This document shows positions 1 through 19,039 of a stretch of 42,038 nt of DNA, piece by piece. The notes beneath the pieces are model-generated. The model made no database searches, was not told the DNA's origin, and saw nothing but the letters and a program-made list of their open reading frames with translations. Every line of letters starts with the position of its first letter. Position 1 is the stretch's first letter. A program made the translations under genes and the position numbers. Source of the stretch: Psammoneis japonica (lineage: Eukaryota); NCBI GenBank assembly GCA_008632985.1, contig QPGO01000020.1:744001-786038 (forward strand), read 5' to 3'.

Positions 1-525
1 CCAAAGGATCCAACTGTCCTTCTGAAGCAGCACAAAGGCTGCACAACCATCCTTTTGCACCTTTTGCAGCATCACAAAGGCTCCCAGCCACCACAGCTGG
101 CAGCAACACAAAGACTCCAACCACCACAGGAGGTGGCAGCAGCACCAAGACTTCAACCATCTTTTCTGAAGCAGCAGTGCAAAGGCTCCAACAGCCCTTC
201 TGCAATGGCACAAAGGCTGCAACCATCCTTCTGCAGAGCAGTGCAAAGGCTCCAACAGCCCTTCTGCAGTGGTGTGCAAAGGCTGCAACCATCCTTCTGC
301 AGCAGCACAGATGCTCCTCCCAACCACCACAGCCAAGTGGCAGCAATGCAAAGACTCCAACCACCACAGCCAAGTGGCGGCAGTGCAAAGGCTCCAAGAA
401 CTGTCCTGTCTGAAGCACCAGAAAGGCTCCAACACTGTCCTTCTGCAGCAGTGCAAAGGGTCCAAACTGTTGCAAGTGGCAGCAGCACAAAAGCTCCAGC
501 AACCATCACAAGTGGCATCAGTGCA
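1..525. repeat. Degenerate minisatellite, units of about 30 bp (core GCAGTGCAAAGGCTCCAAC...CCTTCTG / ...CCACCACA)
   Basis: CAAAGGCTCCAAC/CAAAGGCTGCAAC/CAAAGACTCCAAC recurs more than 12 times at roughly 30-35 bp spacing; the overlapping 'QRLQP' ORFs are by-products of the repeat. Confidence 0.85.
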
Positions 526-2934
526 AAGGCACCGTGTGCCATTCACACGTCCACAGAAACAAAGCCACAAGAACAATTTGACAGCTCAACCACCGTCGTT
601 CACATGTCAACAAAACTCCTGCAGTTTGTGCAAGATGGGCCACTCTCCTGAGTCATCATCATGAAAAAGCTGTTGGCATCTCATGCACATTTTTGACATT
701 GAGCACAGTGTGGAGACAGGTGCCGCACGGCAGGTTGCCCTGTTTTTGTGCACTGCCTGAGTCGTTGGTGCTCGTTGAAATGATGACCTGCCTTGTGCTG
801 TTTGTCTGAAGAGCTTGCATCAGCCAAAATGTCATTTTTTCTGGGTTGGCACTGCTGGCAGTGACAACAAACTAATTCCCGCAATCCACAGATTGAGTGG
901 CCAGTTTTGGACTAACCAAGGAAGTGCCACAAAGCCAACCAGCACATCACAGCACTGTCTGGAGAGACAAGACACCCCCACGCACCAGCCACATCATTCA
1001 CATGTCATCATTTTCTTGCTCAGTGAGTCTTTTGGGGTGACAGTGCATTGTTGGCAAAATGCTGGCTCTGCCACTGGCTTCATTGTGGGCAGTGTGCACA
1101 CCCCCACAAACACACATCTTTCAGCCCAAAACAACCCTCCACATGAAAGGGCAGCTTTTTCACATCAGCAAAACAAAAAAATTGACAGGACTTTGTGCAA
1201 CACCGGCTGGCAACACCCAGCAGACACAACTGGGGGCAACAAGGAGGCAACACTTGGCACAGGATTTGTTGTGTTCTTTTTTTTGCTGCAACCACAGTGC
1301 CACACTGTGCAGCATTGGCAAAGGACTTTTGCACACTCAGAGTGCACAGCTCATCAGCAAAAGCAGCAACCCCCATCTTTGAGTTTGCGCTGGCCACCAT
1401 CAACACAAAAGGAGACAAACATTTGTGCTCTTTCTGGCACACTGCATCAAGAGTGAAAAGGTTGCAGCTCAAAGCAGCAAGCTCTTCATTTGTCAGCAAG
1501 CACAAAAAGGGAGAACTCACAAGGCTTGAAAACATGGAACAAAGATCAAATGGAGCCAGAAGTTGGCTCTTTTCTGCACCCTTGAGCCCAACAACTGCTG
1601 AAGCAGTGTTTTCACCACACAAAGTGAAGAACTTGGTTGGCCAATGGAAAGAAGGGGGTCATCAAGAGCCATTGAAAATGGACAGAAACAGTTTGGAAAT
1701 GTTGCAAAAGATGGTCTTTGACAGTGACATGATCTGCGGTGTGCACAGAATTTGCGCTGGGTGCTGTGTAGAAAACTTGCTGAATTGAGAGAAAATGGCT
1801 GGAAAGGATGACAAGCTGCCAAGCCAGAAGAAGTTGCTGCCAGTTGTTTGCTGCTAAAAAATGTTGCTTGTTGGGCTGAATGATGCAGTGCCATTGGTGG
1901 AGTTGCTCAAAATGGGCTGGTGAGAGGACCCAGCAAAATGGCTCACACACCTTTGGAGAAGGAAGGAGGGCATCAGCGCCAGAGGGTGTGCAGAAACACA
2001 TGTGTGGCTGAGGGTGAGCAGCTGTCATCGAAAAAGTTTTCATTGGCAAAACATGACAAGCCATGTCAGCACACCCTGAATCCTCCATGAGTGCAGTTGC
2101 TTCCCCGCTGCCAGCATGTGCTGAAAAAACATCATCATCAACCACACCAGCCAGCAGCAACACACCTGGCCATGCTGTCATGCAGAGAAGCCAGAGTGCA
2201 CTTCACATTTTATGTTGTCAACTGACCCACCAAGCTGCAAAATGTTCAACTCTTCAGCTTCCTCAATGGCTTGAACTTTGCCAATTGGTGGATGAAGTGC
2301 TGCAGAGGTTGCGTGTTGGAATGTTGTCTTCTTTGTCATCACAAAGAGTCGGCTCAGGGTCAGACAATGTTTTGATTTTTTCTGCCATCAACATTTCTTT
2401 GAGTGCACACAAAAGAGACAGAGCTGTTGGAAGACTTGCTCCCCAATGCTCAAGAGTTTCCAACTGAGCCTCATGATTGACTGAAGCATGCATCAACATC
2501 AATTTGGACATGGGGTGTGGCCCAAGTCACAGACAGTCCAACCTGTCTTGTCTTGCAAAAATTCTGAACAATGCTTTTCTGCATTTTCATGATGAAATCA
2601 ACCTTTTTTGAACACACCTTCTTTCCTGATTCTTTCAGAAAACACACTTGTGACAAGGACAAAGCAAGCTGCAACACAAGCTCATGGGCTGTTTTCTTTC
2701 AATTGAGACCGGCAAAGAAGCTCTTGGCTCTGTGTTCTTCTTTTGTGTGCTCTGCTCTTTCTTGGAGGAACCCTGTCAAAACCCAGCTTGATGTCCCACT
2801 TTAAAGTCAAGTGCAAAATGCCACCAACTTCTGAAATCAACTCATGCAGCAAAGGATTGAAATTTCCAGCACAGAAGATGGCACCAAACAAATGTGCAGG
2901 CAGTCTCTGCATTGCTGAAGGATGCAAGAAGGCT

Positions 2935-5700
2935 TCAAGTGTCTCAGCCATCAAGGGCCTGGTGAGATGGTCTGCCAGTTGGTCCTTGGTGTCAATGCCA
3001 TGCACTGAGATCTCTTTCCTTGTGACATGGTCATGGAAGTGATGCAACTTGACATTTGAGTGCTTGGTGCATGGTCTGCACTTGCGCACATGCGTGCCAT
3101 CTCCAGAGCACTGCTGTTGTCTTCAAACACTTGGCAACGAATCTTGGGCTGTGACATCTTGATGGAGAACTTGTGCCACTTGAGTTCTTTCAACATCTCT
3201 GTCAAGAGTGTGGCTTCTTGCAGAGCATGTGATGAGCCACCAGTGTGTTCAGACTCAGCGCTGCTTGAGGCCACCTCAGTCTGAAGCCAAGATTTCCACA
3301 GTGTGGGACAACCTGTGCAAGTGGCAATGTGACCATCTCATGATCTTGCCACATCACGATCTTGGCCTGCTTCTCGTGGGTCCCAATTTCCACTGAAGTC
3401 TGTGTCCACACAAACTTCCAAATCCTTGTCATTCCAGGTTTTCAGAAAAGTGCCCTTGTCTCTGGTCTTGTGCAAGCACCTGCCAAGCTGCCACGTGGCT
3501 TTGGCATGCTCAACCTTGGGATCTGCTGTGAACCATGCACATTGATGGGTGACATGCGCAGTGTTGCTTTGAGCACATTTCTCCAAGCAGCTCAGCTTTC
3601 CAGCTCTGCTGATCTGTGGTTGAATGAACCATCAAATGGCTCTGAATCAGAGTGCCTCAATGAGATCTTGGAGGATGCCACAGAGGAGTGTCCTTTGCTG
3701 GCAGAGCATTTGGTGAATCCAATTGCAAGTCCTTGAGCATTTGGTCAATTGAGTGTGGTTGGGTCACATGAGCAGCACCCATCATCTTTTCTCACAATGC
3801 TGACACCCAGAAAATTCTGTGTGTCCCCTTCCACAGCAATGTTGAGCTTTGCCTCCTTGAGTTCCTCAACGATCTGTGATTGACTTTGTTCTCATCAGGA
3901 CCAGCAACGAGCAAGTCATTTTCCTGCACAAGAGACAAATTGTTTTTCCCCTGTGGAACACACACTCATCAATTTTTGATTGCTCAAAACCAAGCTTGTT
4001 GATTGGCCATTTGACCAGCAGATGCTTGTTCCACACTCTTCTGACCTGTTTTTGCCCACACACATTTTGGCAGAGCTTCAGAACATGGTCCTTGGCATTG
4101 CCTTTGTTGATCTTGAATCCTGCTGGCATTCCCATGCAAAGCTCTTTGTCAGCCAGCACCTGAGGAAAAGCCAAAACACAGTCCAATGATTTGGAATGCC
4201 ACCCGCTCATTGAATTGAGGGCATGCATCATTTGAACCAAGTTTTGTGCTGCCACTGGTGCATGTGTTTCCTCACATTCCTTCCCCTTTCTCATGCGCAA
4301 GCAGTCAATGTTCAAACAAGCCCTCCATTTCTTGACCTTGTGAGCTGCGATGTCATGCTTGCATTTCATCTGCCATGCCACTGGCAGCACCTTGCTGTCT
4401 CTTTTCACCTTTGATGGTGGAATTGTGGAGAAGTCACCATTTTCCATTTGATCTGTCACCTCCTTTTGCATGGCTTTCAGGAACTGCATGCAACCCGGTT
4501 CCTTCATCACCTGATGCGTGCACATGGTGTCAAGATCTGCTGGTGCTTTGCAGGCATGGAGGGGGCTCTTCTCTTCCCAGAGCACTTGTGAGTCTCAGGG
4601 ATGCATTGCGGTCAAACGCATTGTCTCACCCTCAACGTTGCTCCTTGTTTCTGCACTGCTTTCAGACATCACAGCAGCTTCCATCAGCCTGCTGACCGGT
4701 TGGCTCTTGCACCCTGAACGAGTCACTTTTGGTGCATCAAAGCTGCTTTGTGTCTCATTAGACTCGCGCTTTCTGGGAGCTGCTTCTAGAGATTCATTTG
4801 CAGGCATTGTTCCACCCTCATCTTCTTGAGGTTGCATGTGTGGGCCCTCTTGCCTTGGCGCCGCTTGGCCAGTGACTGCTGCAGTGTTGCCGCACTGCCA
4901 CAGCTCCAGATCTTGTGGGTCAGTCCATTGAACTTGTTTCTGTTGCATCTTGCCCTGCTCAGCTCCCTCTGAACTCACCAGTTTTGGTCTTTGTCACCTC
5001 CCTCTTGGCTGCCAATCCAGCTTTGACATGCCATCACAAATCAAGTTTGTCCTGCTGCAACGCATGGAAGGATGGATCAAATTTGACATGGAGTTGTGCT
5101 GGGCTCACAAGAGCAGCAGCTCAATCCAAGATGAACTCCACATTCTTTCCATGTGTTGGGCTTTGGCCTGAGTGGACAACTCCAACCCTTGATCTTTGCC
5201 TCCATTTGTGGTGTGGCAGGTTAGATTGCAAAGTGTCATTGAGAATGCACGCTGGGCAGCCAAAAGGTTTTCAGTGCTTTGGGTTTGCAGAGACTTGGGT
5301 TTTGGAGAACATCTGCAATGGGGTCAACTTGCCCTTCTTTTGGAAACCAGGCGCCAGCTCTTGAAGTTCTTGGATTCAGTGCTCAGCCGTGCGGTTCTGG
5401 TGGTGAGTGCCTGCCACTGTGAAAGTGAGTCATTGCCTCTGTGTTTGACGTGCAAACACCCAGTTGTTTGTCTTGAAGATGCCATTCTTGTTGGCATGGC
5501 AGGCTTCCACCGTGATGCCACAGCTTTTGGCATGCTGCTCAAAAGCATTTTTTCCCTCCAACATCTCTGCCGCAGATGCCATCTTTTGTGGGCACATGCA
5601 ACCCAACTTGGACCGTCAATTCACATGTGCTGTTGTGCACTTGTGTCTTTTGGTTGTCGGCCATTCAGTCATCTAAACAGCTGACCCTGGCATTGGTGAT
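2935..5700 (-). mobile_element. Degenerate Ty1/Copia (diatom CoDi-like) pol relic: integrase core - reverse transcriptase - RNase H, truncated at both ends
   Basis: Minus-strand motifs in Copia order. Integrase: 'KNAFEQHAKSCGITVEACHA..NGIF', 'KPFGCPAC..HHKWRQRS', 'HVKFDPSF'. RT: 'FLKAMQKEV', 'EETHAPV', 'LDCVLAFPQ', 'NVCGQKQ', 'GFEQSKIDECVF'. RNase H: 'LEVCVDTDFSGNWD', 'SSAESEH', 'VFEDNSSALEMA', 'TKHSNVKLHHF', 'QLADHLTRPL'. Many frameshifts and stops. Confidence 0.93.
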
Positions 5701-6784
5701 GCAAGCTTTTCTTCTTGCTTGGTCCCGGCAACAACAATTGTGCCAAGAAATGACCAAAGACAGCAGGACCAGAACCCAAGTGCAAGCTCAGCTTCTCTCT
5801 AAATGACTGAATGGCAGCAGCAGAAGCGCCTCCACAAGCAGCCAGAAAATGCCAACGCAAGTTGGCAGTGATTTCTTTCTTGCTTGACTGACTCGGCATG
5901 GTCTTTGTCAAGAGAGCTGAGCAGTGGACACAGCTGGGAATGTCATCATTGATGGCACACAGCTTGACAAAACCATGGAACAAATGTTTTGCATGCTTGA
6001 CTTTTGATGAGACCTTGCTGCGGCAGAAAGGGCTGACTCCCCATGTGCACCCTGAAGCTGTTGAGCAGACCTGTTGTCCTTGACGATCGTGTTGACTGGT
6101 GCTCATGCACTGTCATTTTGACACTCAGCAGTTGCAAATTTTTGTGTCAATGGAGCCGTGCAATGACTCTTTGGAGCAAGATCAGTGAGATCATCAATCA
6201 TGCAGATTTTCTCCCTAAATTGGAACAGCACATTTGAGCATGCCATGCAAGCAAACCACTTTTGTTCAGAGCTTTCACAAAGTGACATCTCTCAATGGAT
6301 CTTGATGCAAAAGTGTGCCCCAAGCGTGCGTCTGCATGAGCTCCATGAGGAAAATTGGAGCACATTTTGCATTTTGCAAATGCCCGCACCATGCATGACA
6401 CGACTCCCACTTCTGGGAAGGACAAACACAGTTCTTGAAGAATCACATCTTTGGAACAGCACAAGCATTCTTTGAGGTGAGATCACAACTCTGGTCTCCA
6501 CAACCAAGAACAGCCAAACCCAAAAGACTGCCATTTCAGTCAAATGTCATTCAGAGTTGCATGATGGCTTGGCCTGTCCATGCAGCATCCGAAGAACACT
6601 TGTTGGGAATGACATGCTTCAGTGACAAAACTCAGCGCCGAGGCTCTGGAAGTCATGCCACAGCAATGTCCGAACACCATTGAGAGACTGAAAATGTGTT
6701 GGCTCAACTTTGGTCCACGCGCATGTTTTCTGGATAAAAAAAGGCAACCCTCCATGCAAGTGCCTTGTTGCCGACTTTACATGA

Positions 6785-7216
6785 ATTGTGCTCTCCATCA
6801 ATTGGGCTGGAATGCATTGTTTGATGGCTTGCTTCATCCCGTCATGGCACATGCCTCAACCACAGGTGGAGTGGACTTTGTCTTTGATTTCCTTGAGAAT
6901 CAACGGTGCCAAGGCAGAGCTGCAGCTTCGAACAAAACAAAAGTTGGTGGCACCTCCCCACGGACAATCTTGGCTTTTCCTCAAAGGCGGCACCTGACAA
7001 ATTGCACTCTCCATCAATTGGGCTGGAATGCATTGTTTGATGGCTTGCTTCATCCCGTCATGGCACATGCCTCAACCACAGGGAGAGTGGACTTTGTCTT
7101 TGATTTCTTTGAGAATCAACAGTGCCAAGGCAGAGCTGCAGCTTTGAACAAAACAAAAGTTGGCAGCACCTTCCAATGGACAATCTTGGCTTTTCCTCAA
7201 GAGCGGCACCTGACAA
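6785..7216. repeat. Direct tandem duplication, 2 x 216 bp
   Basis: CTCTCCATCAATTGGGCTGG at 6791 and 7007; both units end CACCTGACAA (7000, 7216); few substitutions. Confidence 0.95.
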
Positions 7217-8466
7217 ATGGTGGGTGCGCATGTGGTCCAAGTGGCCTTTTCCACATGGACGCATGTGACAGTGCTGGAACTTTGTTGTGCTTGACTTGAT
7301 TTGTGGCAGAAGAACAACCAATCCACCCTGTGTCCCATGTTGACAGCAAGGCAGAAATGAGATCATGAACATGACAGAGTGGCACATGACGCTTTGGAGT
7401 TCGGATGGCACCAAGCCATGTGTCCGAGAAATGTTGTTCATGCTGGCAATCAAATTGGCATGTGACATTGGGACTCCCTTCCAATGCAAGCACACACCGT
7501 GGGATTGTTGGGAACGTTGTTTGGTTGTGGGTCACAACCTGAAGCATTGCTGGTGTGGACAGGCCGCTCAAGTTGGGTTTGAAGCAGTGCCAAACACATG
7601 CAGAAAAGGCACAATGTGCAAAGGTCACTTGGCATCAAAGGTCAGTTTTTGTTTCTTGTCCACCATGATGGAGTTGCTTTCCTCTGCACAATCCACTTGG
7701 GTGGGCTCCAACTTGTGCTTGACCACATCACTCTGGGCTCTGGCTCTGACTGGCTCCAATCTGCAGATTGGACAGCAATTCCCAATGTGGCTGCCACCAC
7801 CTCAGCAGCAGGAATGCCCTTTGAGGGAACCCAGAGCAGCTTGGATTTGTTGTCCTCCATGCACAACTTGTGCTTGGACTCGGTGCAGTTTTGGCTCAGT
7901 GGGGGCAAAACACACTGGGTTCATGGCATGGCGAGAAAGGCCAAAACAAATGGCAGGCAGTTTGGTGTGGCAATGGAACAAATGTCCCACTTTTGTGTGC
8001 CACACTTTTTCAACCAGACTTGTTGCAATGGACTCAATCATGTCGTGAAGCTGCTGACAGGAGGAAATTTTGATTGCGGACTGGCTGTTCTTGTGCGGAA
8101 TGCACACCAACATTCAATGAGAACCACAGGGGGAGTTGTTGCAATGTGTTCATGCCGGTGAGACATTGACAAGCAGGGACATCAGGGCCAGCTTCTGCCA
8201 TGGTGTTGTTTCATGCATTTTTAAGTTGGCAAGCACAAACTCAATTAAAGCAGACTGGTGTCAAGTGAAGTCATGAAAGGATCCACAGACCTGTCGTTTT
8301 GGCGATCATTGGAGCATTCAATGACGTTGTTGCCATCATTCACCCATTGCGCGATTGGGTTGAAGATCTTGAACAAGATGCCCAAGTTGAAGATTCTGTT
8401 TTCAACGCACATTTTGTGCAAAAATTCCCTTGGAAAAGGAGTGTCTCTTGTGAGTGGTTGTGCGAA

Positions 8467-8638
8467 TGAGAAAGTCATGTTGCGCTGAAAGCAAGAAGCA
8501 AGACGGGGAGACGGGAGATGGAGATGGGAGACACTGGCAAGAGCAAGGAGCAGCAGCACACAAAGAGCACTTGCAGCACACTGCTGCTGCCTGCTTTTGT
8601 GCTTTCATCTTTCATGCCTGTCACCAAGTGGCCCAACA
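8467..8638. repeat. Possible LTR-like segment (TG...CA ends), related to 9856-10084
   Basis: Starts TGAGAAA, ends CCAACA; shares CAAGACGGGGAGA.GGGAGA, GCAGCAC(AC)AAAGAGCA and CTG.TGCTGC with the second segment. No convincing PBS or TSD found. Confidence 0.35.
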
Positions 8639-8729
8639 TGCTCTCACGGCGGGAAGTTGCAAATGCACCCGGCCGGTCGGTGTGCAGACATTCTTTCTCA
8701 ATGACCAGCCTCTAAATCCGCCATCATCA

Positions 8730-9192
8730 TCCTGAATTCATGAATGGCCCAAATCCACCACCATCTTGAAAAGTTCATGACTGGCCTGAACTCAGTTGGT
8801 GCCAAGACTTCAAATGATCCGCTGAAACTGGCCTGAATCCACCACCATGCCAAAATTCACGACTGGCCCAAATTCACGACATTGGCTTAAATCTGCCACC
8901 ATCCTGAACAACTCACAACCAGCCTCCATGACTGGCATGAACTTGGCCAATGGCCTGAATTCGTGGCTGGCTTCAACCCGCCACCAGCGCCCTTCTGAAC
9001 AATTCACGACTGGCCTGAATTCATGACTGGCCTGACTCCACCACCTGTCACATGGCAACAGGAACCCAGTCTAAGTTCACGACTGTGCATGTGTCATCCT
9101 GCCCACTGCACACAAAAAGGTCACAACCAGAGCCTGAATTCACGACTGCCCCAACTCCACCACCAGAGGGCCCCAAAAAGTTCACGGCTGGT
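8730..9192. repeat. Array of a degenerate ~17-bp motif (GGCCTGAATTCACGACT) interspersed with CCACCACC
   Basis: AATTCACGACTGGCC / AATTCATGACTGGCC / AGTTCACGACTG variants recur about 10 times with irregular spacing. Confidence 0.8.
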
Positions 9193-9210
9193 TTGAGTCA
9201 TGTGCTGAGT

Positions 9211-9660
9211 GTTGCCAAATTTCTCAATCATTGTCATTTTTGTGCATGTCAGCAGGATGCGTTGGCATGTTGTTTGTGTCGCTCATCGATTGACACTGCA
9301 CTGCCGACAAAGAAATTGAAAAGGAACTTTTTTCCGTGGTGCGTTGAGTGTTGTTGAGCTTCTCAGAAAAAGCTTTCGATCAATGCAGCAAAGCATGCTT
9401 TGCTCTGACTCACACTTCTAACTCTGCTTTTGCCTGTTTTCAATCGCACTTCCAATCCACTCGTGTTGGCTCATGTGCCATGGCAGGCATCGAGGTCCTG
9501 GCTCTCACTTTTCGGGGAGCATTTCCGCAAAATTTCTCGATTTGCTTCTCAACCTGCCTCTGGCCTCTGGCCAAGTGCGTTTCTTCGACACTTGGAATGA
9601 CTGCATGACAAGTCTCACTCCAAAAAACAAACAGAACTCATGGTTGTTTCGGACTCAAGC
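9211..9660. repeat. Diverged, TA-erased paralogue of 12157-12200 plus 13200-13560 (old local duplication with a large indel)
   Basis: Shared blocks: GTTGC.AAATTTCTCAATCA.TGTCATTTTTGTGCA; CGTTGAGTGTTGTTGA; TGCTTTGCTCTGAC; TCGAGGTCC; CGCAAAATTT; TCGACACTTGGAATGACTGCAT.ACAAGTC. Confidence 0.85.
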
Positions 9661-9855
9661 TGGACTGTTGTGGAAATCCTGCAACAAACACGGCTGCTGG
9701 CTGTCCAGACCGTGGATGCTTTTTCCGAGGTGCCGTTCGTTTTGACATTCCGGATTTTCTGCACCATTTGAAGAATTTCACCTTGGCAAATCCAAAGTGT
9801 GGAGAAGTTAAATTCCGTCGTAATTGGCAAAATCTACAGTCCAAAGCTGAATTTA

Positions 9856-10084
9856 TGAGAAATGTGGGCCCACAAGTCTTGGTGGTTGCTGTGATTTCAA
9901 GACGGGGAGATGGGAGACTCAAACACAAGCAAGCCGCAGCACAAAGAGCATCGCACTGATGCTGCAAGATGGCACAGCTTGGTGACCAACAGTGCCAGTG
10001 ATGATGTCAAATGCAATGCATTGATGCTCGGTGCTTGCTGTGGATCCCTGCTGGCGACAGAGATTCTTCTTGCCGGCCACAACA
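9856..10084. repeat. Possible solo-LTR-like segment related to 8467-8638
   Basis: TGAGAAA...CACAACA ends and the shared purine-rich GACGGGGAGATGGGAGAC core; flanks do not form a TSD. Confidence 0.3.
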
Positions 10085-10284
10085 TCACTTTGGTGTGCTG
10101 AGAGGCCACAGCGGCGCTCTTCAGTGAGGGAGGTTCGGTTGTTCACATTCCCACACGCTCGGGTGAGGAGATTGTCAGTCAGACGGTTCAGCGAGTCGGC
10201 CAATGCCTCATTGGAGCTGGTCGAGTCTTTGCTCAATCCCATCCTGCTTCAAGTCTTTCTGCTTCTCCTGGTGCTTTCACAGTT

Positions 10285-10800
10285 GTGCTGTCCGACACAG
10301 TCAATGCCTTTGTCCTGCCCAACAATCATGTGTTTGTCATGACGGGCCTTTTCCAACACGTTCGAGACGAAGATGAGTTGGCCGCTTTGTTGGGACATGA
10401 ATTGGCTCATGGAATTGCATGCCATGCTGGTGAAAAAATGAGCGGTTCCATTGTTGTCAATGTCACTGCTCGGTTGTTGTTCTCAGTGGATCCTTCAGGG
10501 GCACTGTCGTCCACACTTCTCTCGGCAGCTCAGTTGCTGCAGGAGCTTTCTAATTCTAGACAAGCTGAAACCGAGGCTGATCAGATTGGTGTGTTCTTGA
10601 CTGCTCAGGCTTGCTGTGATCCACGTGCTGCCAAACGCGTTTTTGCGTGAGTTGTTTTCTTTGCGCACACTGGCATGCCATCTTGTTTGTCATTCCTCTG
10701 CTTAACTTCTGTTCTTCCATTGTCGGCATGTCCAGAGCAATGAAAGAGGGAGCAAAGGGAGCACAGCCTCCAGAATTCATTTCGACTCACCCTGGATGCC
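10285..10800 (+). pseudogene. Peptidase family M48 (Oma1/HtpX-like) gene fragment with one intron (10647-10735), TA-erased
   Basis: 'VNAFVLPNNHVFVMTGL', zinc motif 'LLGHELAH', 'SRQAETEADQIG', 'ACCDPRAA' (family ACYDP); a GTGAGT...CTTAAC...CCAG intron restores the frame to 'AMKEGAKGAQPPEFISTHPG'. No intact N- or C-terminus evident. Confidence 0.85.
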
Positions 10801-13800
10801 AGGGGCTTTGGGGGTCTTTGAGAGTGATGCCGGTCACCGTTGTCGTCAGGTTCGTGAAGACATGCGAGCAGCTCATTTGATTGTGGCGCAGAATCAAGGC
10901 ACCACGACTTAACACAGGGGAGAGGAGCTTGAATGCAATGGCACCAGGAGTTGAGAGTGGTGCTCTAGAGAGTTCGCAGGCCAAAAGAATGAAAGGGACA
11001 TCGCCAATGACAACGCTGGCGCAGTGGGAGCACATCGCAGGGGACGCAACAGTGCAGGGGCGGCGCTTGCAAGTGGGCTTGTGGTGTGCTGTGCAAGTGA
11101 TGGCTCTGCCAGTGTGATGAAGGAATCGAAACTCGAAACCAGCGATGTCATGCCCAATGACGAAGTGCTGCATCCTTTGTCATTTGCCATCTTTTGCTGC
11201 TCTTCTGTTCAAGTCGCTGCTCTTCTGTTCAAGTTGTTGAACATTGTGGCAAGCAGGCAATCAGAGCCGAAACAGCCCAGCATGCATCGGCGACGGGGCA
11301 CACCGTGACGAACAACCCGACGTGGACTCTGGGCAAGCAAGTGCACGATGACATCGCAAGCACTGCGACCGTCATCGCAGTCCATTTGACATGCATGCGG
11401 AATGAATTGCGTGCAAATGAAGATTGCCACAGTGTGCTTTTAGAGTCTTTCTGCTTCCATTGCAAAGGTTCAAAGCGTGTTTCAAACAGTTGAAACACGC
11501 CAATGTCAAAAGTTGACATGGAAATCGGTTGCGCAGGGTGACGTTGCCTCAAGAGCTCCATCAAAAGATGGCGCTCAAGCTTTTGCGTGTCTTCAGAGAG
11601 AAAAAATGTCACTCTAAAAAAAGCAAAAGGGGGGGCGCACTGCAGAGACAACAAGAAAACTTGCCAGTCAACCGCGTTCTAAATCAACACTCCCCACGAG
11701 TGAAGACTCACCGCATCATGCCACTGATGCGACAGAACCCCAAACCTGTGTTCTGTCAACAGCATGATCTGCTCGGCGAGCTCTTGCTGCTTCACAGACG
11801 AACGCTGCTGTCTGTTTCAACAGCCGTGACCTGACGGGTCAAGCGAACAGGCAACTTCCTGTGCTTGAAGACACGAGAGTGACATGGACTCAAGGCCGGA
11901 GAGATGCACTCGATTTGCCCCGACCTCTGGACTTAACTGGCAACACCTGCGCCACCTGGAGACAACACGTCAACAAGCATGATGAGTTGTGGAACACCAA
12001 ACAAGAGCTGGCTCTCTGTTGTCCGCAAGAAGGGCGAGCCATCCTGGGCGATCGCGGCAATCGTTGCTTGGCGAACAACAACACATCGTGCGAGACAAGG
12101 AGTTGTGATTGAAAAGCGTGAAAGAATTTCCGAGAGATTTTGAGTGAGACATGACCGTTGCTAAATTTCTCAATCAGTGTCATTTTTGTGCACATCTGTA
12201 GAATTACTACCATGATTTCGTATGTAGAACATTCGTGAAACTTGGTCTCGCGCACGTGTGCGCGGTCATTAGACTGTGTAGGCGTGTGTGCGTGTGTGAG
12301 GTGTAAGTAGAATATACGTAGAATTACTACTGATGAGTTGACAGGCGGTGGATTTTCCGCCGGTACACAATCTACGCGGTCTACATGGAACATAAATTTA
12401 TGTCGGTCTCTGAGGATTTTACATATCATTAACATTTCTTTGGTCTTTTAAATATACATACCCAAATTCAAAAAAGTGAGGAACACCCCGAAACACATTT
12501 TTGAATCTGTATAAAAAATTTTTTTATTTAACGGTCCGAACAGGGTCGCCCCGAAGCGCTTCTCAAAATATCCTCATATTGTATATAGTAAAACATCTAC
12601 TATCACCAAAACAGAGTCACTATCGGATAAATAGATCCCGTGTTCTTCGCGCGCAAACAACACGATAACGCACAACAACACCATGGCGAGAAACGCGAAC
12701 GCCGTCCCCTCATCTACAAGTTGGGAATACGAGATACTATTGAAGTGGTTGGACAATATGTATGCGCTGTATTCATGGGTCAAGTTGGGTTTCTTCTCGT
12801 TGCTTGTTGTTGCGTCATTTTACTACGTTTTGACCCACGCCGTGTTCTTTGCTTTGTTGCTTCTGCTCGCGCGCCACCAACAGCACTTCCTGCAGGGTAT
12901 GGCTAGTTGCTCATCACATCGAACCCAAACGTGCGCGACCAACTAGCCCTACCCCGGCTAACTCATACTTTCAAAATTATTACCAAATCCTACGTACACT
13001 TTACGGTAACCATAGAAAACGCAAACATTTGTCGCCAAGGTGACTGTTCGTTGTCGAGGTCCGAGCTAAGAATAATTAGCAGGTGGCGCAACACATCTTC
13101 TTGCCACATACAATAACACGGCATTCAGCACGACGATGACAAAGCTCCGGATTGAGATCATCACAGATCACAGTAGTCGACTTCCCAACGAAGAAAGTGA
13201 AAAAGAAACCTTTTCCGTAGTACTGTACGTTGAGTGTTGTTGATTGTTGAGCTTAATTCACAGAAGAAGCATTTGATTGCAGCAAAGTATGCGAATGCTT
13301 TGCTCTGACGCATGCTTCTACTTTTACTTTTACTTGGTTTTTATCATACCTCCAATCCATCCACTCGTATCAGTTTGTGTACCATCCCGGATATCGAGGT
13401 CCCGGTATTCTCTTTTCGGGGATAATTTTCGCAAAATTTATCGATTTGCTTTCTCAACCTACCTCTGGCCACGTTTGAACGTGCATTTCGTCGACACTTG
13501 GAATGACTGCATAACAAGTCCTATTCCAAAACATCAAAAGGAACTCGCGGGTTTTTCGGATCCAAGTCATCTGGTTGATTTTACTCATGACACTCCGTTG
13601 CTAACGTGGGCGTCGTAGACGTTGCTCTCGATTCACAGCAGATTCTTTCAACGATTGAAGGACGCTGGATGCAGTGATATCGAGACAAATAGCCATAAGA
13701 GTGGGTTGTTGATGTTTGTGTGAGTCTCGGTGGTGAAGCAGGTGATTTTGTTGCAGTTGAAAATTACGCAAAGACAGCACAAGCACTGCAAAGTTCGTCA

Positions 13801-14944
13801 TCTGCTGCAAGAGCACTCAAGGACGGCGCTCAAGATGGAGCGAGCGGACAAGATTGTTGCGCTGATTGGGGCACAGTGACAAAAGCACCTCGACATATTA
13901 TGGAAGCCACTGTTGCGGCGCTGGATGAATTGCTTGTTTCTAATTGAGCCGATTGTTGGCATCTTATGCGGGTGGAGCTTGCTGCGCCTGAGCCAGGCAC
14001 GACAGCCCGCACTGCTCGAACGTTCGGCGGCACTGTTGCAAAGACGATCTTCTCCTGCGGTTGACTGTTGCGTCTTTTCAAATTATCGCGATACTGTGAT
14101 CAGATGTGGCCAACCAGAAAGTGTTATGGGTGTGGCCAACCGAAAAGTTGGCCACAAATGGAGTCCTGACGGGAAGGCCGTCTTTCTTTCCAAGCGGTGC
14201 TAGTGTCACCGAAATGCGATTCGTCCCATCTGAAAAGTATGCGCAAAATAATTACGAGTGAAATGATAATGTCGGCTACTCTACAAGCGCGAAATCCTAG
14301 AGTATTTTAACTATAGCCGGAGCAGTTTTGTGGCTTCACTAAGTAAGTCAATGACTTTCCGTGTCTCTATGCGCTTAACTTGGCCATGCCAAATAGTTGT
14401 TACTCGTATTTCGGTCCCTCGACTCAAATGCTTCTTGTTGCCGATTGGTCGTCATTCTTAACCGATTAGTTGGCGCGAGTCGAACTTTTTGCGTGCTTTG
14501 AGCTAACAAGCTTCGTTATCAGTGCGAGTGGGGGCTTGGTTGTTTTGTTTGTCTGGACGAAGCGCACTTGATACGAAATCTGCAACGGGAGTAGCAACTG
14601 CTGCTGCACTTGAAGGTTCAAGTTTTGTCGGGCCGCCGCTCCATTTCGTTGCCTTTAGCCTTGTTATTGTCTTAACCATTCCAAGAGCCCGTTGCTTCTC
14701 TAATCGCTAGTAGTTGTCGGTGAGGTGAATACGTAGCATTATTTGTGCAGTAGTCGAAGGTAATGATGCCGCCAATCGGAACTCTTTTATACCTGAAGCA
14801 GTACCGCAGTAGCATTTTGGATTGGCTAATGAATCAATTCAGCAGAGATACAAAAGCTACGATTATGCTATGAAAGCTTTAAAGGGGTGGCGACGCCTCG
14901 ATGTTTGAGAATACTCTTTAGCAGCAAGCATTCTTACTTGTCTT

Positions 14945-15982
14945 TCAGGAAGCAAGTCCATCCAAAAGTGTCATTTCGTCAGGTGATAGCTGAAAGTCAA
15001 ACACTTGTAGGTTTTCGATAAAGTGATCCTTCTTCTTGCTTTGCGTGGTGAAGGAGGCGCCGTTCTGGACAATCCAACGCAACGCGACTTGAGCTCCACT
15101 TTTACCATAGGCTTTCCCAATGTCTGCGCATTTTGCTTTCATTTGCGAAGTAAATCTCCCTCCTAGACTCCCTCCCAAAGGAGCCCAAGCTTGTACCAGT
15201 ACACCTCGTTTCTTGTTCTCCTGTACAATGCTTTGAGCCCCACCAGGATGGTATGCTACCGAAAGCGGCAATTGATTCACGACAGGCTTGACTTGGAGAG
15301 CCGGGTCCTCCAGAATACAATCGATTTGTTTGGGTGAAAAGTTGGATATAGAAAGAGTCCTTGTAAGTTTCTGATTGTGCATATCCTGAAATGCTTTCCA
15401 CTGTCCACGAATGGAATCGCAGTCCGGCCCGGGATAATCCAACATGATTTGATCAAGATAGTCAATACCACCCACAGCAAACGCCTCGAGGTTCTGTTTC
15501 CATCCCTTCGTTGTAGCCTTGTAAGCCGCATCAAATCCTTGCACACGATTGGAAACCACGGATCCAGAAATAAATATTTCAGATCGGTCAATTCCAGAAT
15601 CTCGAACTGCCTTGGCAAAGCCACGTTGGTTGCCAGCCAGAACAGATGCAAAAAAGTTTCGATATCCCACCTCCAGAGCTGTTCGAGTCAGCTTGTATGC
15701 CTTGTCGTCGTCATAGATCTGCAGTCCAAAACTCGCCAACGGAAACTCGTAGCCGCCCTCCAGCGTAGTAGTTGTTGTAGAGGGAGATGCCGCTATTGCT
15801 CTGTTGTCATGATTTGGTAAAAGAACACCGCTTCCAACAGCAACAGCAGCAGAGCTCGTACGAACGAATGCATCTCTTCTGCTGATACTCTTCCCACCAT
15901 AAGCAGATGGTGAAACATTAAGTGATGCAACTAGGGCGGGAACACATGAAAGAAGAGGTATAAACACTGAACGCAACCTCAT
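14945..15982 (-). CDS. Aldo/keto reductase-fold protein (~345 aa) with signal peptide and twin-arginine presequence
   Basis: Intact ORF from ATG 15982 (MRLRSVFIPLL...). AKR motifs 'ALEVGYR', 'RSEIFI', 'DYLDQIMLDYP', 'ISNFS', 'PVVNQ', 'VQAWAPLG', 'AQVALRW', 'ENLQVFDFQLS'. Confidence 0.9.
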   Translation of the reverse strand: MRLRSVFIPLLSCVPALVASLNVSPSAYGGKSISRRDAFVRTSSAAVAVGSGVLLPNHDNRAIAASPSTTTTTLEGGYEFPLASFGLQIYDDDKAYKLTRTALEVGYRNFFASVLAGNQRGFAKAVRDSGIDRSEIFISGSVVSNRVQGFDAAYKATTKGWKQNLEAFAVGGIDYLDQIMLDYPGPDCDSIRGQWKAFQDMHNQKLTRTLSISNFSPKQIDCILEDPALQVKPVVNQLPLSVAYHPGGAQSIVQENKKRGVLVQAWAPLGGSLGGRFTSQMKAKCADIGKAYGKSGAQVALRWIVQNGASFTTQSKKKDHFIENLQVFDFQLSPDEMTLLDGLAS

Positions 15983-16272
15983 TGTCTTGTTTGGTGGTTT
16001 GATGATGGCGCCGCAGATTGAGGATGTGATGGATGATGCGATGTGATCGTGATCGTCATGCCGTGTGCGATGGACGATGCGGATGTGATGTGATGTTGTG
16101 TGCGCGATGATGCGGTGGGCGGGCGGTGGGCTGTTCCGCGTGCACGAGGTCGATTTTTTTGAAAACAATGGGAGCTCGATTCGAAAACCATACTAGCAAG
16201 GCGACAGCGCGGCCGCCGGCCGTCGATCGATGATGATCTTCACGCACAAAAAATACAAAAAATTGAAGAAAA
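15983..16272. promoter_or_regulatory. Probable bidirectional promoter region
   Basis: 290 bp between divergent start codons; contains GATGT/GATG repeats and a GC-rich near-palindrome GCGGCCGCCGGCCG. Confidence 0.55.
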
Positions 16273-18357
16273 ATGAAGAGAGCACCATGCTCATCTTTAC
16301 GGCATTATCAACGCATGTTGATGACAGGTTGCTGTTGCTTGTGCCTGGCTAATCAAGCGGAGGCCTTTATCTGCCCCATCTTTTGGGAGCCTCGTCAAAA
16401 TATTGCAGTTTCTAGTTTCAAACAGAGCAGAACATTGTCATGTCGACATTGGCAAAGTCAAACATACAATGTCCAGAAGAAAACAACCGCATCAATCGAA
16501 CCATACACACGAGAGACGTTGGACGACGGCCATTCAGTATCTTCAAGACCAATGCGAATAGAGAACCGAGAAAGCAAGAGAAGAAAAATATACTTCGTAA
16601 TGGCTATGATTCTTTCGTGGTTCATTCTGGCAAAGTCTCCCGCGTCTGCTGCTTCGTCTGCTGCTTCTCCGTCACCAATAACACAAGCTCATCCACTTGA
16701 ATTGAAAAAGCTCGGAATCGCTGCTTGTATGGCTTTATCGGTTGGTGGTGTAGGAATGAGAATTGCAGGACTGAAGCGGCTGTCGGTTCAGATTATGATT
16801 GCATGCGGTCGGTGTGCGCTTCAACTCTATCTGGTGGGGTCGTTGATACTCACGAGACTGTTTGGAACAACCAATCCTGCCATTGTCATGTCATGGATTA
16901 TTGGAGTGGGAATAATTGCAGCCTATGAATCGTATATGCGCGTTGAGTATTCCTATCCCGCGTTGAGCAAGCACTTGGTAGTTTCTGTACTATCCGGTGG
17001 GCTATCGGTACTGGGACTTGCATTGCTGTGGAATGTATTGGGAAATCTCGATCCCTGGTTTCAACCAAGAACCGTTATCCCGATATCTGGAATGATATTT
17101 GGTAATACCTTATCAGCTGCTAGTTTAGCTGCGGATTCGCTTACAAAGGAATTCGCCCTTCGAAGAGATCAGATCGAACTGCGCTTGGCTCGTGGTGCGT
17201 CGTCGGATGAGGCGGCGTTACCACATGTGCGGACAGCTCTGACGTCCGCTCTAACACCCGCCATCAACTCTCTTTCCATTACGGGTATTGTACACATGCC
17301 TGGCATGATGTCGGGGCAAATATTGGCGGGACAGTCGCCGCATCAAGCGGCGGCATACCAAGTCATGATTTTATTTTTCATTACCACCAGTGCCTGCGCA
17401 ATGGTTCTTGTCCTTTGTCAATTGGTTAAGCGCGAAATGTTTGCTAGCGAAACACTCACTCTGACTCGACTTTATTCAATAAACACGGGCGGCAAACAAG
17501 CACAAGATCAAGGCACAATAAGCCGCGACAAATCACCATCAGCTTACATCTGGCGACTTGTAGCATCGATTGTCGGTATTCGATTATCAGCAGATCCTAA
17601 ACACACTCGACTGAACTCACCCAAGGCTTCAACGGGGAGCTTGTCAGTACCTTCATTCGAGAATTCTCCCACCATAAAGGCGATGGAGATGAGCACGCCG
17701 GATAAAAAAGACCGCAGAGATATGCCGGTTTTGGAGGTTAAAGAACTCAAAGTCAAGGTCGGGCATCGCGACCATCGAACTGTTTCATTCAATCTTTTTC
17801 ATGGCGACCGTATCGGAGTTATGGGCCCAAGTGGATCAGGGAAGACGCAGCTATTGAGAACTCTTGCTGCGTTTGAGGTATTCAGTGGTACAAATGACAA
17901 GCAAATCTCTTTGAACGGTGCTGTTTCGCCTAGCTATAGTCTTGCCCAATGGCGATCCATGGTATCTTGGTTACCACAGGATAAACCAACGCTCGGTGGA
18001 ACTCCAAGAATGTTTTTCAACGAAGTACTTGGCTACAAAAGCCGACGAATGAAGAATGAGAAAGATAACACCCCTTGTCCCGACCAGTATTGCATCCAGT
18101 GGAGCTTACATCCAAGCGCCTTGGATCAATCTTGGTCTACCTTATCGGGAGGGGAAGCACAGCGTGCCTCACTTGCAATTGCCCTATCGTTGAAACCAAC
18201 AGTTCTGCTCTTGGATGAATCCATGGGAGCACTCGACAAGAAAACTTCATCATTGGTGGAAACGACCCTCGTTGATTCTGGTATTCCTGTCATTCTCGTG
18301 ACACACTCCGACGAACAATTGGAACGATTTTGCACCCATACTATCCGTATCGCCTAG
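16273..18357 (+). CDS. Fusion of a UPF0014 (FetB/YbbM, plant ALS3/STAR2-like) permease and an ABC ATPase (FetA/YbbL, STAR1-like); putative plastid targeting
   Basis: 694-aa uninterrupted ORF. Permease motifs 'PRTVIPISGMIFGN', 'IELRLARGAS', 'GIVHMPGMMSGQILAGQSP.QAA.YQVMI'. Walker A GPSGSGKT, signature LSGGE, Walker B LLLDE, H-loop VTH. N-terminal 'AEA-F' resembles the diatom ASAFAP cleavage motif. The true start may be a slightly later Met. Confidence 0.9.
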   Translation: MKRAPCSSLRHYQRMLMTGCCCLCLANQAEAFICPIFWEPRQNIAVSSFKQSRTLSCRHWQSQTYNVQKKTTASIEPYTRETLDDGHSVSSRPMRIENRESKRRKIYFVMAMILSWFILAKSPASAASSAASPSPITQAHPLELKKLGIAACMALSVGGVGMRIAGLKRLSVQIMIACGRCALQLYLVGSLILTRLFGTTNPAIVMSWIIGVGIIAAYESYMRVEYSYPALSKHLVVSVLSGGLSVLGLALLWNVLGNLDPWFQPRTVIPISGMIFGNTLSAASLAADSLTKEFALRRDQIELRLARGASSDEAALPHVRTALTSALTPAINSLSITGIVHMPGMMSGQILAGQSPHQAAAYQVMILFFITTSACAMVLVLCQLVKREMFASETLTLTRLYSINTGGKQAQDQGTISRDKSPSAYIWRLVASIVGIRLSADPKHTRLNSPKASTGSLSVPSFENSPTIKAMEMSTPDKKDRRDMPVLEVKELKVKVGHRDHRTVSFNLFHGDRIGVMGPSGSGKTQLLRTLAAFEVFSGTNDKQISLNGAVSPSYSLAQWRSMVSWLPQDKPTLGGTPRMFFNEVLGYKSRRMKNEKDNTPCPDQYCIQWSLHPSALDQSWSTLSGGEAQRASLAIALSLKPTVLLLDESMGALDKKTSSLVETTLVDSGIPVILVTHSDEQLERFCTHTIRIA

Positions 18358-19039
18358 AGGTTTTTTCTTTGTCGTTTAACTGCTTTGAGCAGCAACCGTT
18401 GGGTGCCTCGAGATATCATTGGATACACATCCTGTTCCAGATACAAAACTGGATTCCTAGTCCAAGAAGACGGTCATACCATCCTATATTCAAACAAACA
18501 ACGAGACGCTAACTGCATTTCATGAGTGAGTAACGTCTTGGATAGAGAGAGTGAGTATGGAAGAAGGAGAAAAACTGCACGCATCCCGATAATCTTTTGC
18601 TTCTTTGCTACTCGCACCATCACTCTTTTTAAAAGATATCGCCTGTGTCGGTTCAAAATTTGTATGTTTCGTCAAGGGTTGAAGACAACGGGCACTACAT
18701 TACTCTCAAATGACAAACGGAGCCCCGACATCATCTATTGGTCGTCCTTGAAACCGCCATCCTTGTGCAAGCAATGCTTAAGTCCGATAGTGACATCGAC
18801 TGACAGTAACATACGCAGTGACGGAAAATTTCTTTAGTGTCAAACGCTTAGTGCGTAGCTGTCCCATCTAGAGATGAAGCGTTCGCTCTGCCCCAATGTC
18901 ACTTTCGCTGAAGAAAACCATGCATTGCACGCACTGTCAGCCAAGCAGCTCCTCTTCATTTGTCAGTGCTTTGGTCGTGCATAATGTCGTCATTCATGAC
19001 TCGATTGTAATTGCAGATCGACTGGGCCCCTCATACGCA

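Follow-up and report, generated by a model that had tools for sequence, protein, structure and literature searches.

The DNA analyzed here, referred to as the window, is a 42,038-nucleotide stretch of contig QPGO01000020.1 from the diatom Psammoneis japonica. In three parts of it, the dinucleotide TpA has nearly vanished, and TpG and CpA appear in its place. The first of these TpA-poor islands contains the relic of a Ty1/Copia retrotransposon in which every conserved tyrosine codon has been lost. A truncated tandem duplicate of a host gene, elsewhere in the window, carries the same change at an earlier stage and discloses its direction.

TpA-poor islands and the Copia relic

Dinucleotide frequencies are given as observed/expected (o/e) ratios, in which the observed count of TpA, or of another dinucleotide, is divided by the count predicted from base composition. 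A 1-kb sliding profile of TpA o/e delimits the three islands (1 to ~12160, 18870-23072, and 40430 to the window end); an unaffected block between the first two serves as the background.

1-12160, no strand: island 1, continuing past the left window end; 33 TA versus 781 expected, o/e 0.042; CG o/e 0.34
18870-23072, no strand: island 2; 7 TA versus 281 expected; CG o/e 0.23; coding content not recognizable
40430-42038, no strand: island 3, continuing past the right window end; 0 TA versus 97.6 expected; CG o/e 0.31
12200-18869, no strand: unaffected background block between islands 1 and 2; 312 TA, o/e 0.65; CG o/e 1.05

The profile shows a near-zero TpA plateau from position 1 to ~12160. A preliminary description of this DNA, made from the sequence alone, had reported near-total TpA loss over positions 1 to 12150, and the right border of island 1, which lies between 11934 and 12199, fits that end point. 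Over positions 1-11500, only 30 TA remain (o/e 0.04), and the o/e values of CG, CA, and TG are 0.31, 1.79, and 1.74; in the gene block at 12000-18500, TA, CG, CA, and TG stand at 0.63, 1.04, 1.18, and 1.19. The enrichment of CpA and TpG in island 1 is ~1.8-fold. The longest run without TA extends over 1957 bp, as compared to one TA per 21 bp in the background. Simple arithmetic on the dinucleotide counts shows that, per base, island 1 differs from the background by -0.043 TA, -0.038 CG, +0.041 CA, and +0.032 TG. The losses of TA and CG are balanced by the gains of CA and TG, indicating that the vanished TA and CG reappear as CA and TG. GC content is nearly unchanged (0.49 in the island versus 0.465 in the background).

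The islands have borders 100-300 bp in width. That of island 2 on its left lies near 18870-19142, and the density of TA declines toward island 3 already from ~39.5 kb. CpG depletion in island 1 takes the form of a gradient, and in the island cores CG o/e ranges from 0.09 to 0.35. Counted on both strands, the stops of island 1 comprise 36 TAA, 23 TAG, and 604 TGA. Because TAA and TAG are almost gone from islands 1-3, long open frames occur in all six frames, and gene finders may be misled. None of the 148 stop-free island open reading frames (ORFs; 62-119 aa) matches a Pfam family at E ≤ 0.01, and several kb are without recognizable content. Across the whole window, Rfam matches and tRNA genes both number zero.

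One part of island 1 remains recognizable as a retroelement.

2934-5711, minus strand: Ty1/Copia polyprotein relic, with an integrase region, an RVT_2 reverse transcriptase, and an RNase H region in Copia order, interrupted by frame changes and TGA stops

An RVT_2 (PF07727) match with E = 5.7e-16 and 59.3 bits, well above the cutoff of 31.6, lies in the minus-strand ORF at 3869-4594, and this reverse transcriptase (RT) fragment has 4832 relatives at E ≤ 0.001 in a library of 1.8 billion proteins. Full-length relatives (1118-1429 residues) can be aligned along the minus strand between 5711 and ~2934 in several frame-changing pieces. In the case of one of them, P0090, residues 382-1332 extend by tblastn over 5711 down to 2937 in five pieces (382-650, 672-1008, 1020-1112, 1111-1280, and 1284-1332). 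Residues 382-650 fall on 5711-4998 and residues 672-1332 on 4987-2937, all on one strand and with the integrase region upstream of the RT in one polyprotein; P0090 itself has gag_pre-integrs (312-353), SH3_retrovirus (557-615), and RVT_2 (849-1084) domains. Gag and protease were not found, residues 1-381 of the relatives having no tblastn match. A flanking direct-repeat pair, as expected of long terminal repeats, was found neither by BLASTN self-comparison nor with exact 36-mers after purine/pyrimidine recoding. Judged from these alignments, the Copia element at 2934-5711 is a truncated, decayed relic. Named elements of the diatom Copia clade CoDi did not appear among the relatives recovered. 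The preliminary description had the whole island cover such a relic. The relic is indeed present, but it occupies only 2934-5711 of the 12 kb, and the island as a whole is a mosaic of satellite-like repeats, the Copia relic, an OMA1 gene fragment, and unrecognizable DNA.

The relic contains 4 TA versus 170.6 expected, and its tyrosines have fared accordingly. Conserved columns were defined as those in which at least 8 of 22 full-length relatives are aligned and at least 60% share one residue, a definition that yields 358 columns. At the 18 conserved Tyr columns, the relic retains no tyrosine: 9 read Cys (TGY), 8 read His (CAY), and 1 reads Lys. By comparison, Phe is retained at 15/18 columns, Asn at 6/9, and Lys at 13/16 (34/43 together; Fisher p = 3.6e-9 versus Tyr). 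An earlier comparison with a smaller database had given 0/17 for Tyr. These data uphold the earlier proposal that the conserved tyrosines were destroyed through conversion of TAY to TGY or CAY, 17 of the 18 being Cys or His, and tyrosine is far more substituted than the residues with which it was compared. Most of the strings that had been quoted in favor of this proposal are also found, all on the minus strand: EETHAPV at 4253-4273, LDCVLAF at 4166-4186, LEVCVD at 3404-3421, ESEH at 3245-3256, and ACHA at 5493-5504. A further example, the Y.DD motif of the RT, was not located.

The same column procedure was applied as a control to 78 metagenomic Copia loci, drawn from the best 80 of 538 relatives, a selection that favors intact elements. 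These loci retain Tyr at 1237 of 1431 columns and show 6 Cys and 5 His, so the relic's Cys and His are not what intact relatives have at these positions. Their whole-locus TpA o/e ranges from 0.30 to 0.90, with a median of 0.68. The relic has 133 replaced columns, 63 of which can be reached by TA to TG/CA or CG to TG/CA steps alone (32 of TA type, 30 of CG type, and 1 of both). In the controls, 329 of 4029 replaced columns can be so reached (odds ratio 10, p = 4e-31). The other 70 of the relic's replaced columns carry substitutions that are neither TA nor CG changes.

Further replacements in the relic, Leu by Ser (TCA, 5 columns), Val by Ala (GCA, 3 columns), and Ile by Thr (ACA, 2 columns), are as expected from TTA, GTA, and ATA codons. 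Arg is retained at 9/24 columns. All of the survivors are AGR codons, and the lost ones read CAA, TGY, TGA, CAT, or TGG. The lost Arg codons bear the signature of CpG decay, in which CGN to TGY/CAY also yields Cys and His. A second process, converting CpG to TpG/CpA, has operated alongside the loss of TpA, and on the column counts it accounts for approximately half of the relic's directed amino acid changes.

Direction, context, and strand of the change

The pairwise comparison that gives the change its direction comes from two adjacent copies between islands 2 and 3.

28128-29389, plus strand: copy A, the 3' end and downstream region of an intact gene (24342-28898, 1519 codons); unmutated reference
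29390-30687, plus strand: copy B, a truncated tandem duplicate directly after copy A; partly hypermutated, with a converted tract at 29449-30536

Self-BLAST and alignment give 96.1% identity between the two copies over 1262 aligned bases. Among their 49 differences, 24 are TA in copy A versus TG (14) or CA (10) in copy B, and 10 are CG in copy A versus CA (7) or TG (3) in copy B. Differences in the reverse direction amount to 3 of TA type and 1 of CG type, and the remainder are 3 transversions and 8 other transitions. In the tract at 29440-30540, copy B has lost 24/29 TpA and 10/57 CpG, along with 6/461 other A/T and 4/430 other C/G bases (Fisher p = 4e-20). Expressed per base, 24 among the 58 A/T bases within TpA have changed, versus 6/461 outside TpA, and the mutability of an A in TpA exceeds that of other A/T bases by a factor of at least 45-67. 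AA is retained at 148/150 sites and TT at 69/71. The per-site decay of TpA outpaces that of CpG 9-fold within the tract and 5-fold over the whole of copy B. The possibility that the dip at 29.4-30.5 kb merely reflects the composition of a low-complexity coding region, where TG is 0.94 and CA 1.15, was also considered and was ruled out by the alignment with the tandem twin.

A third paralog (32801-34000; 81% identical to copy A) was used as an outgroup. Of the TA versus TG/CA sites, 11 support copy A, 3 support copy B, 3 match neither copy, and 7 have no aligned outgroup base. The CG sites divide 7 to 2 and the other differences 9 to 1, in both cases in favor of copy A. Because the outgroup sides with copy A at 27 of the 33 decidable sites and with copy B at 6, copy B is the derived copy. 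Where the gene in copy A ends with the stop TAA, copy B has CAA.

The preliminary description regarded island 1 as the saturated outcome of the process visible at 29.4-30.5 kb. The elementary change is the same in both places, and its direction is supplied by the duplicate pair; what that account left out is the CpG process running alongside, which contributes 30 CG-type columns in the relic versus 32 of TA type.

Both strands are affected. The relic has 9 Cys versus 8 His replacements, and the duplicate has 14 TG versus 10 CA changes. The TG and CA changes of the duplicate are arranged in 17 runs, versus 12.7 expected (z = +1.9), and form no strand-coordinated clusters. The base 3' of the changed A matters: changes occurred at 1/22 TAA, 10/25 TAC, 7/15 TAG, and 6/16 TAT sites. 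The TpA that survive in the three islands show a matching bias, with 29/40 in the context YTAR (CTAA 12, TTAA 11), in which both adenines of the TpA step have a purine 3'; the background figure is 91/538 (odds ratio 13, p = 3e-13). A secondary target is discernible as well. An A before T has changed at 5/122 sites versus 1/443 for other non-TpA adenines (p = 0.002), and the ApT o/e of island 1 (0.81, versus 0.99 in the background) is in line with a weak secondary ApT target.

The zones affected by the two processes differ in extent. At three borders (8-12.1 kb, ~22.5-23 kb, and 40-40.5 kb), the TpA-free zone extends 0.5-3 kb beyond the CpG-poor zone. Either a faster TpA process saturates first in a domain that spreads outward, or the TpA and CpG processes are only loosely coupled.

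Other sequences in the window and relatives elsewhere

The sequence of island 1 is reproduced by read contigs. Those of run X1 equal the window with 0 differences at 340-3064, 3102-3745, 4459-4938, 5141-5991, 5978-6820, and 7053-9339. In total, X1 contigs (31-mer) cover more than 8 kb of island 1 at an even depth of ~33, equal to that of host DNA at 13502-14000. Zero-difference contigs at single-copy depth rule out an assembly slip. Paralogous contigs, when compared with the window, show paired CA/TG swaps at 9381/2, 9413/4, 9787/8, 9883/4, 9892/3, 10140/1, and 11866/7. Since CA cannot become TG in one step, such paired swaps are the pattern expected if the copies decayed independently from TA or CG.

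In addition to the Copia relic, the following features were recognized in island 1 and in the unaffected block.

66-470, no strand: satellite-like 33/66-bp tandem repeats found by Tandem Repeats Finder (TRF), within island 1
6784-7218, no strand: 216-bp tandem duplication in 2 copies (TRF, 93% matches), within island 1
10177-10930, plus strand: relic of a host-type OMA1/M48 metalloprotease gene (Peptidase_M48, E = 9.6e-23), in the outer part of island 1
14948-16192, minus strand: aldo-keto reductase gene (Pfam match), within the unaffected block
16267-18354, plus strand: UPF0014+ABC gene (Pfam match), within the unaffected block

The satellite-like repeats are accompanied by an X1 depth of 185 over 1-467, versus ~33 elsewhere. 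The two 216-bp copies differ at 14 positions, of which 9 are G-to-A or C-to-T (3 at CpG), 3 are A-to-G or T-to-C, and 0 are at TpA. A TpA pattern is absent from these differences because no TA is left there.

The OMA1 relic is of host type. Its best named relatives are diatom OMA1 proteins with 52-60% identity (Seminavis, Mayamaea, Ditylum, Nitzschia, and Epithemia), and every named relative above 49% identity is from a diatom. It is preserved in three pieces (10177-10647, 10737-10793, and 10793-10930) with one frame change and lacks the N-terminal 100-150 residues. The relic retains 107/133 conserved columns, including 0/3 Tyr and 8/13 Arg. Its TA o/e is 0.09 and its CG o/e 0.59, most CpG being retained. 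Within it, at 10646-10736, a contig of run X2 that is ~10% divergent from the window omits 89 bases with GT..AG ends. This contig resembles a spliced transcript, or else an intron-less copy, from a paralogous, possibly functional OMA1 gene, and run X2 may be RNA-derived although it is labeled 'DNA?'.

Two repeated sequences lie in or across the outer part of island 1. A 360-bp repeat occurs at 9304-9659, inside the island, and at 13185-13566, outside it, with 77% identity. In this pair, 13 differences are TA outside versus TG/CA inside and 0 are the reverse; the pair also differs by 31 transversions, which indicates that it is old. The stretch at 11209-13076 has a read-contig depth of 1700-6600, versus ~33 nearby, and spans the border of island 1, its left part being TpA-free and its TpA normal from 12200. 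It has no Pfam, Rfam, or tRNA matches. The depth suggests a very high-copy sequence, or k-mers common to an organelle or satellite.

Genes of the window have long unbroken frames, and their protein matches are all at or below 66% identity, so that this diatom has no closely related sequenced species in the libraries searched. The best relatives of the UPF0014+ABC protein (16267-18354) are 46-47% identical, one of them from Attheya, and its nearest Atlas cluster is eukaryotic with Bacillariophyta as the commonest phylum. The gene to which copy A belongs is one of two tandem paralogs, at 24342-28898 and 30894-33671 (both plus strand), with upstream repeats at 23800-24308 and 30684-31189. Both encode very long low-complexity proteins (GC-rich and C-skewed) with repeats rich in Ser, Lys, and Gly, which we take to resemble diatom cell-wall or silaffin-like proteins. 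A DUF7467 domain is N-terminal in the product of 24342-28898 (E = 2.7e-10).

A similar footprint may be present in some relatives of the Copia relic. Among the 149 best relatives of the RT fragment, the median Tyr content is 3.6%, and six Copia-type proteins stand out as Tyr-poor: P0120, P0150, P0151, P0170, P0175, and P0201 (NCBI, ENA, Logan, and JGI records; five kinds of source). At the tyrosines of their nearest intact relatives, these six retain 2/31, 4/15, 0/12, 2/25, 0/6, and 1/8. In five of them, Cys and His make up most of the replacements (e.g., THAPV and DCVLACPQ), the exception being P0175 with only 2 of 6. In ten control relatives, Tyr is kept or goes mostly to Phe, except in P0100, which has 4 His and 4 Cys among 31. 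The Tyr-poor proteins suggest that the same hypermutation may occur in other sequenced organisms or metagenomes. When viral contigs were scanned with an alignment of the Tyr-poor proteins, no relative was returned. Three of the metagenomic Copia loci (L063, L066, and L067) have TpA o/e of 0.13-0.3 in 1-kb windows, with lowest values of 0.13-0.14, and CpG of 0.05-0.35 with intact frames, yet they keep 16/20, 24/29, and 19/23 conserved Tyr, respectively. Low TpA alone is therefore no proof of the process, and these three loci are not examples of it.

Proposed mechanism, rival explanations, and known systems

We propose that the islands are very probably the product of a targeted hypermutation of silent diatom DNA, acting in situ at the DNA level and changing A:T to G:C specifically at TpA. 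The process acts on DNA in place, over kb-scale domains and on both strands equally, without strand-coordinated runs. Change of a top-strand A converts TA to TG, and change of a bottom-strand A converts TA to CA. The preferred sites are TAC, TAT, and TAG, with TAA largely spared and a weak secondary activity on A before T. The targets comprise retrotransposon relics, satellite-like repeats, duplicated host-gene fragments, and unrecognizable intergenic DNA. The same domains lose CpG to TpG/CpA, as methylated DNA does, ~5-9 times slower per site. Our data demonstrate the signature together with its direction, site specificity, trinucleotide context, and domain structure. Because the TpA and CpG processes both end in CA/TG, the enrichment of these dinucleotides is almost two-fold. 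Saturation removes all Tyr codons, TAA and TAG stops, and TTA, CTA, ATA, and GTA codons, and thereby destroys any gene in the domain. An enzyme would be the likely cause, the domains may correspond to silent, partly methylated chromatin, and the whole may constitute a genome defense like repeat-induced point mutation (RIP) of fungi. Such a defense would be permanent, with Tyr codons lost and Arg CGN codons decayed to stops and missense.

Several observations weigh against this interpretation. The saturated state is seen in 0 of the 78 metagenomic Copia loci, none of which has a whole-locus TpA o/e below 0.30. At 10700-12160, TpA o/e is 0.08 while CpG, at 0.76, is near normal, which makes the link to CpG decay a loose one. 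The stretch with depth in the thousands adjoins island 1 at 12.2-13.1 kb, yet its TpA is normal; should the depth stem from a high-copy repeat, being repeated does not by itself set off the process, and copy A is spared too. In copy B, 15/39 TpA are unchanged. Of 17 informative TpA sites, the outgroup paralog has the state of this mutated copy at 3 and of neither copy at 3, with 7 more unaligned. Finally, runs X1-X3 come from one sample, which is perhaps the source of the assembly itself, so that they do not amount to independent confirmation.

The rival that deserves most attention, although we consider it unlikely, is a chemistry on the thymine side, in which the T of TpA is modified in silent DNA (e.g., by oxidation to 5-hydroxymethyluracil or a further derivative) and then mispairs with G or is misrepaired, giving T-to-C as the by-product of an epigenetic mark instead of the work of a dedicated editor. 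Sequence cannot separate A-to-G on one strand from T-to-C on the other, and all of our counts fit both chemistries equally. Dinoflagellate DNA, moreover, carries 5-hydroxymethyluracil preferentially at TpA and TpC. The window, however, offers no sign of a modified base. 5-Hydroxymethyluracil forms its pair with A and is only weakly mutagenic, a poor fit to a per-base excess of at least 45-67-fold, and the weak secondary target, A before T, has no obvious thymine-side rationale. A different origin, editing at the RNA level, would have an ADAR-like enzyme convert A to I in Copia RNA before its reverse transcription and insertion. The relic is a retroelement, and ADAR favors U 5' of the edited A, as is discussed in the text of a preprint on another protist (bioRxiv 10.64898/2026.01.13.699255). 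Editing of one RNA strand, though, would yield only TA to TG in the sense direction, and the relic has 9 Cys (sense A-to-G) versus 8 His (antisense). The signature also lies in non-element DNA of the 12-kb island, in the OMA1 fragment, and in a tandem duplicate that arose in place. ADARs are known from animals only. We judge an RNA-level origin highly improbable.

Equally improbable is a reversal of the direction. In that case, either the islands would have been poor in TpA from the start, because they came from a foreign source or because TA was selected against, or the intact copies would have acquired their TpA through RIP-like conversion of CpA. A pairwise difference of TA versus TG/CA is symmetric in principle, and the loci L063, L066, and L067 are low in TpA while keeping their tyrosines. 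From the relatives, however, TAY is established as the ancestral codon of the 18 Tyr columns, the outgroup paralog favors TA at 11 sites versus 3, and the TAA that serves as the stop for an intact 1519-codon frame in copy A is CAA in copy B. Selection, for its part, can have no hold on relics that are interrupted by numerous stops and frame changes. Systematic errors in base calling or polishing, made at modified bases and turning TA and CG into TG/CA, would be a technical explanation, and the circumstance that X1-X3 are perhaps the very reads behind the assembly leaves some room for it. Against it stand the contigs that match more than 8 kb of the island without a difference at even depth, the relic's frame changes and its 70 of 133 replaced columns of neither TA nor CG type, and the Tyr to Cys/His pattern in six database proteins from other sources; an artefact is very unlikely. 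Least probable of all is a generic GC-biased process, such as biased gene conversion or relaxed heterochromatin repair, with no site-specific agent. The net direction at A:T pairs is toward G:C, as such a process would have it, but only 6/461 A/T bases outside TpA changed versus 24 among 58 within it, AA and TT are kept almost throughout (148/150 and 69/71), and island GC (0.49) barely differs from that of the background (0.465).

With targeted hypermutation at TpA as the preferred explanation, a candidate for its agent is suggested by comparison with known enzymes. TadA and ADAT2/3 act on tRNA loops, where their natural target, A34, always follows U33 (5'-UA), and early TadA-derived DNA adenine base editors preferred YAC. 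The context found here resembles that preference, with TAC changed most often (10/25) and TAA least (1/22). A TadA/ADAT-type deaminase that works on DNA, yielding hypoxanthine from adenine and thereby a base read as G, is our first-choice enzyme, a choice we hold at slightly less than even confidence. It would differ from the natural enzymes in its substrate, because activity on chromosomal DNA has been engineered or, according to citations in the text of the same preprint, reported for only a few ADAT2 proteins.

Three better-known systems share parts of the pattern. Fungal RIP is the closest functional counterpart, with opposite polarity. Both are genome-wide, region-confined, dinucleotide-specific forms of transition mutagenesis that introduce missense and nonsense changes into transposons and leave a footprint in dinucleotide ratios. 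RIP, however, converts CpA to TpA by C-to-T change, which creates TpA and lowers GC, whereas here TpA is destroyed and GC is 0.49. RIP also mutates all copies of a duplication, whereas here copy A is untouched and the truncated copy B alone is changed, and the very-high-depth stretch beside island 1 is unmutated. Editing by animal ADAR (A-to-I in RNA) or APOBEC3 (C-to-U in cDNA) likewise produces clustered transitions with a nearest-neighbor preference, a 5' U in the case of ADAR, and inactivates retroelements. In those systems, a single strand of RNA or cDNA is edited before integration, and the resulting tracts are strand-asymmetric and limited to the element, in contrast to the equal effect on both strands and the domain reaching far beyond the element in the window. 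Deamination of 5-methylcytosine in methylated transposons resembles the second process, since CpG goes to TpG/CpA in the same islands, Arg CGN codons are lost, and copy B has lost 10/57 CpG. Methyl-CpG decay is unable, though, to remove TpA, and TpA-free DNA continues beyond the CpG-poor zone.

The nearest precedent is in the chlorarachniophyte Bigelowiella natans. The text of the preprint by Mettrop et al. (bioRxiv 10.64898/2026.01.13.699255, April 2026) describes mutation accumulation in this alga, in which 230/231 mutations in two integrated viral regions were A-to-G or T-to-C, all GC-biased ones being at TpA. The mutations were de novo and episodic, at ~1000x the background rate. The same text reports a genome-wide class of windows and coding sequences that are TpA-poor and rich in CpA+TpG, these coding sequences being enriched for reverse-transcriptase and DDE domains, and it proposes an ADAT2-like candidate enzyme, citing a few ADAT2 proteins as active on chromosomal DNA. 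As far as that account goes, the two cases agree in the change of TpA to TpG or CpA by strand, in kb-scale regions adjoining normal DNA, and in TpA depletion with a gain of CpA+TpG. Given this likeness in elementary change and footprint, the islands described here are of the same kind as the TpA hypermutation that the preprint text describes.

The differences are also instructive, insofar as the preprint text allows comparison. The host here is a diatom (Stramenopila) rather than a rhizarian. The islands are saturated, with TpA o/e of 0.00-0.04, versus 0.45 in the nucleocytoplasmic large DNA virus (NCLDV) region of B. natans. Integrated viruses are the targets there; here they are the Copia relic, satellite-like repeats, and host-gene fragments (OMA1 and a truncated duplicate of a cell-surface-type gene). 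As to their origin, the Copia relic is a transposon, the OMA1 fragment and the truncated host-gene duplicate are also affected, and islands 2 and 3 are without recognizable content. The evidence in B. natans consists of de novo events, whereas here it comes from one window and a pairwise per-base excess of at least 45-67-fold. The preprint text contains no mention of CpG, trinucleotide, context, diatom, or retrotransposon, and relative to that text the co-occurring CpG decay, the TAA resistance, and the weak ApT activity are new. A full-text literature search returned only this preprint for TpA-to-TpG/CpA hypermutation, and nothing for diatoms.

Our results have consequences for annotation, for the search for the agent, and for the biology of the host. 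The islands yield long spurious ORFs and hide transposons from homology searches. TpA erasure has so far been reported once, in B. natans, where the preprint text identifies no enzyme; the window adds a second, very distant, and ecologically dominant lineage. The range of targets is widened beyond integrated viruses to retrotransposons and duplicated host-gene fragments, and new constraints are placed on the mechanism, namely, action on both strands, no strand runs, resistance of TAA, weak ApT activity, and a loose link to CpG decay. The search for the enzyme becomes comparative and can be directed at deaminase or base-modifying genes that B. natans has in common with signature-bearing diatoms. 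Genetic work is feasible in some diatoms, and if these show the signature, the agent would be directly testable. A natural enzyme for A:T to G:C change in chromosomal DNA, if such it is, would be of interest to base editing.

In its fullest form, which we regard as possible but somewhat less likely than the deaminase assignment itself, our proposal is that diatoms have a chromatin-directed 'TA eraser', most simply a DNA adenine deaminase acting at 5'-TA(C/T/G), in place on silent DNA. It would change all accessible TpA on both strands, ~5-9 times faster than the decay of methyl-CpG, and would permanently kill transposons and stray gene duplicates. If this is true, the system would be a counterpart of fungal RIP with the direction mirrored, and its enzyme would be a naturally occurring editor of adenine in double-stranded DNA. 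Since the same signature is found in a chlorarachniophyte, such a system is perhaps ancient and common across the SAR supergroup (stramenopiles, alveolates, and rhizarians).

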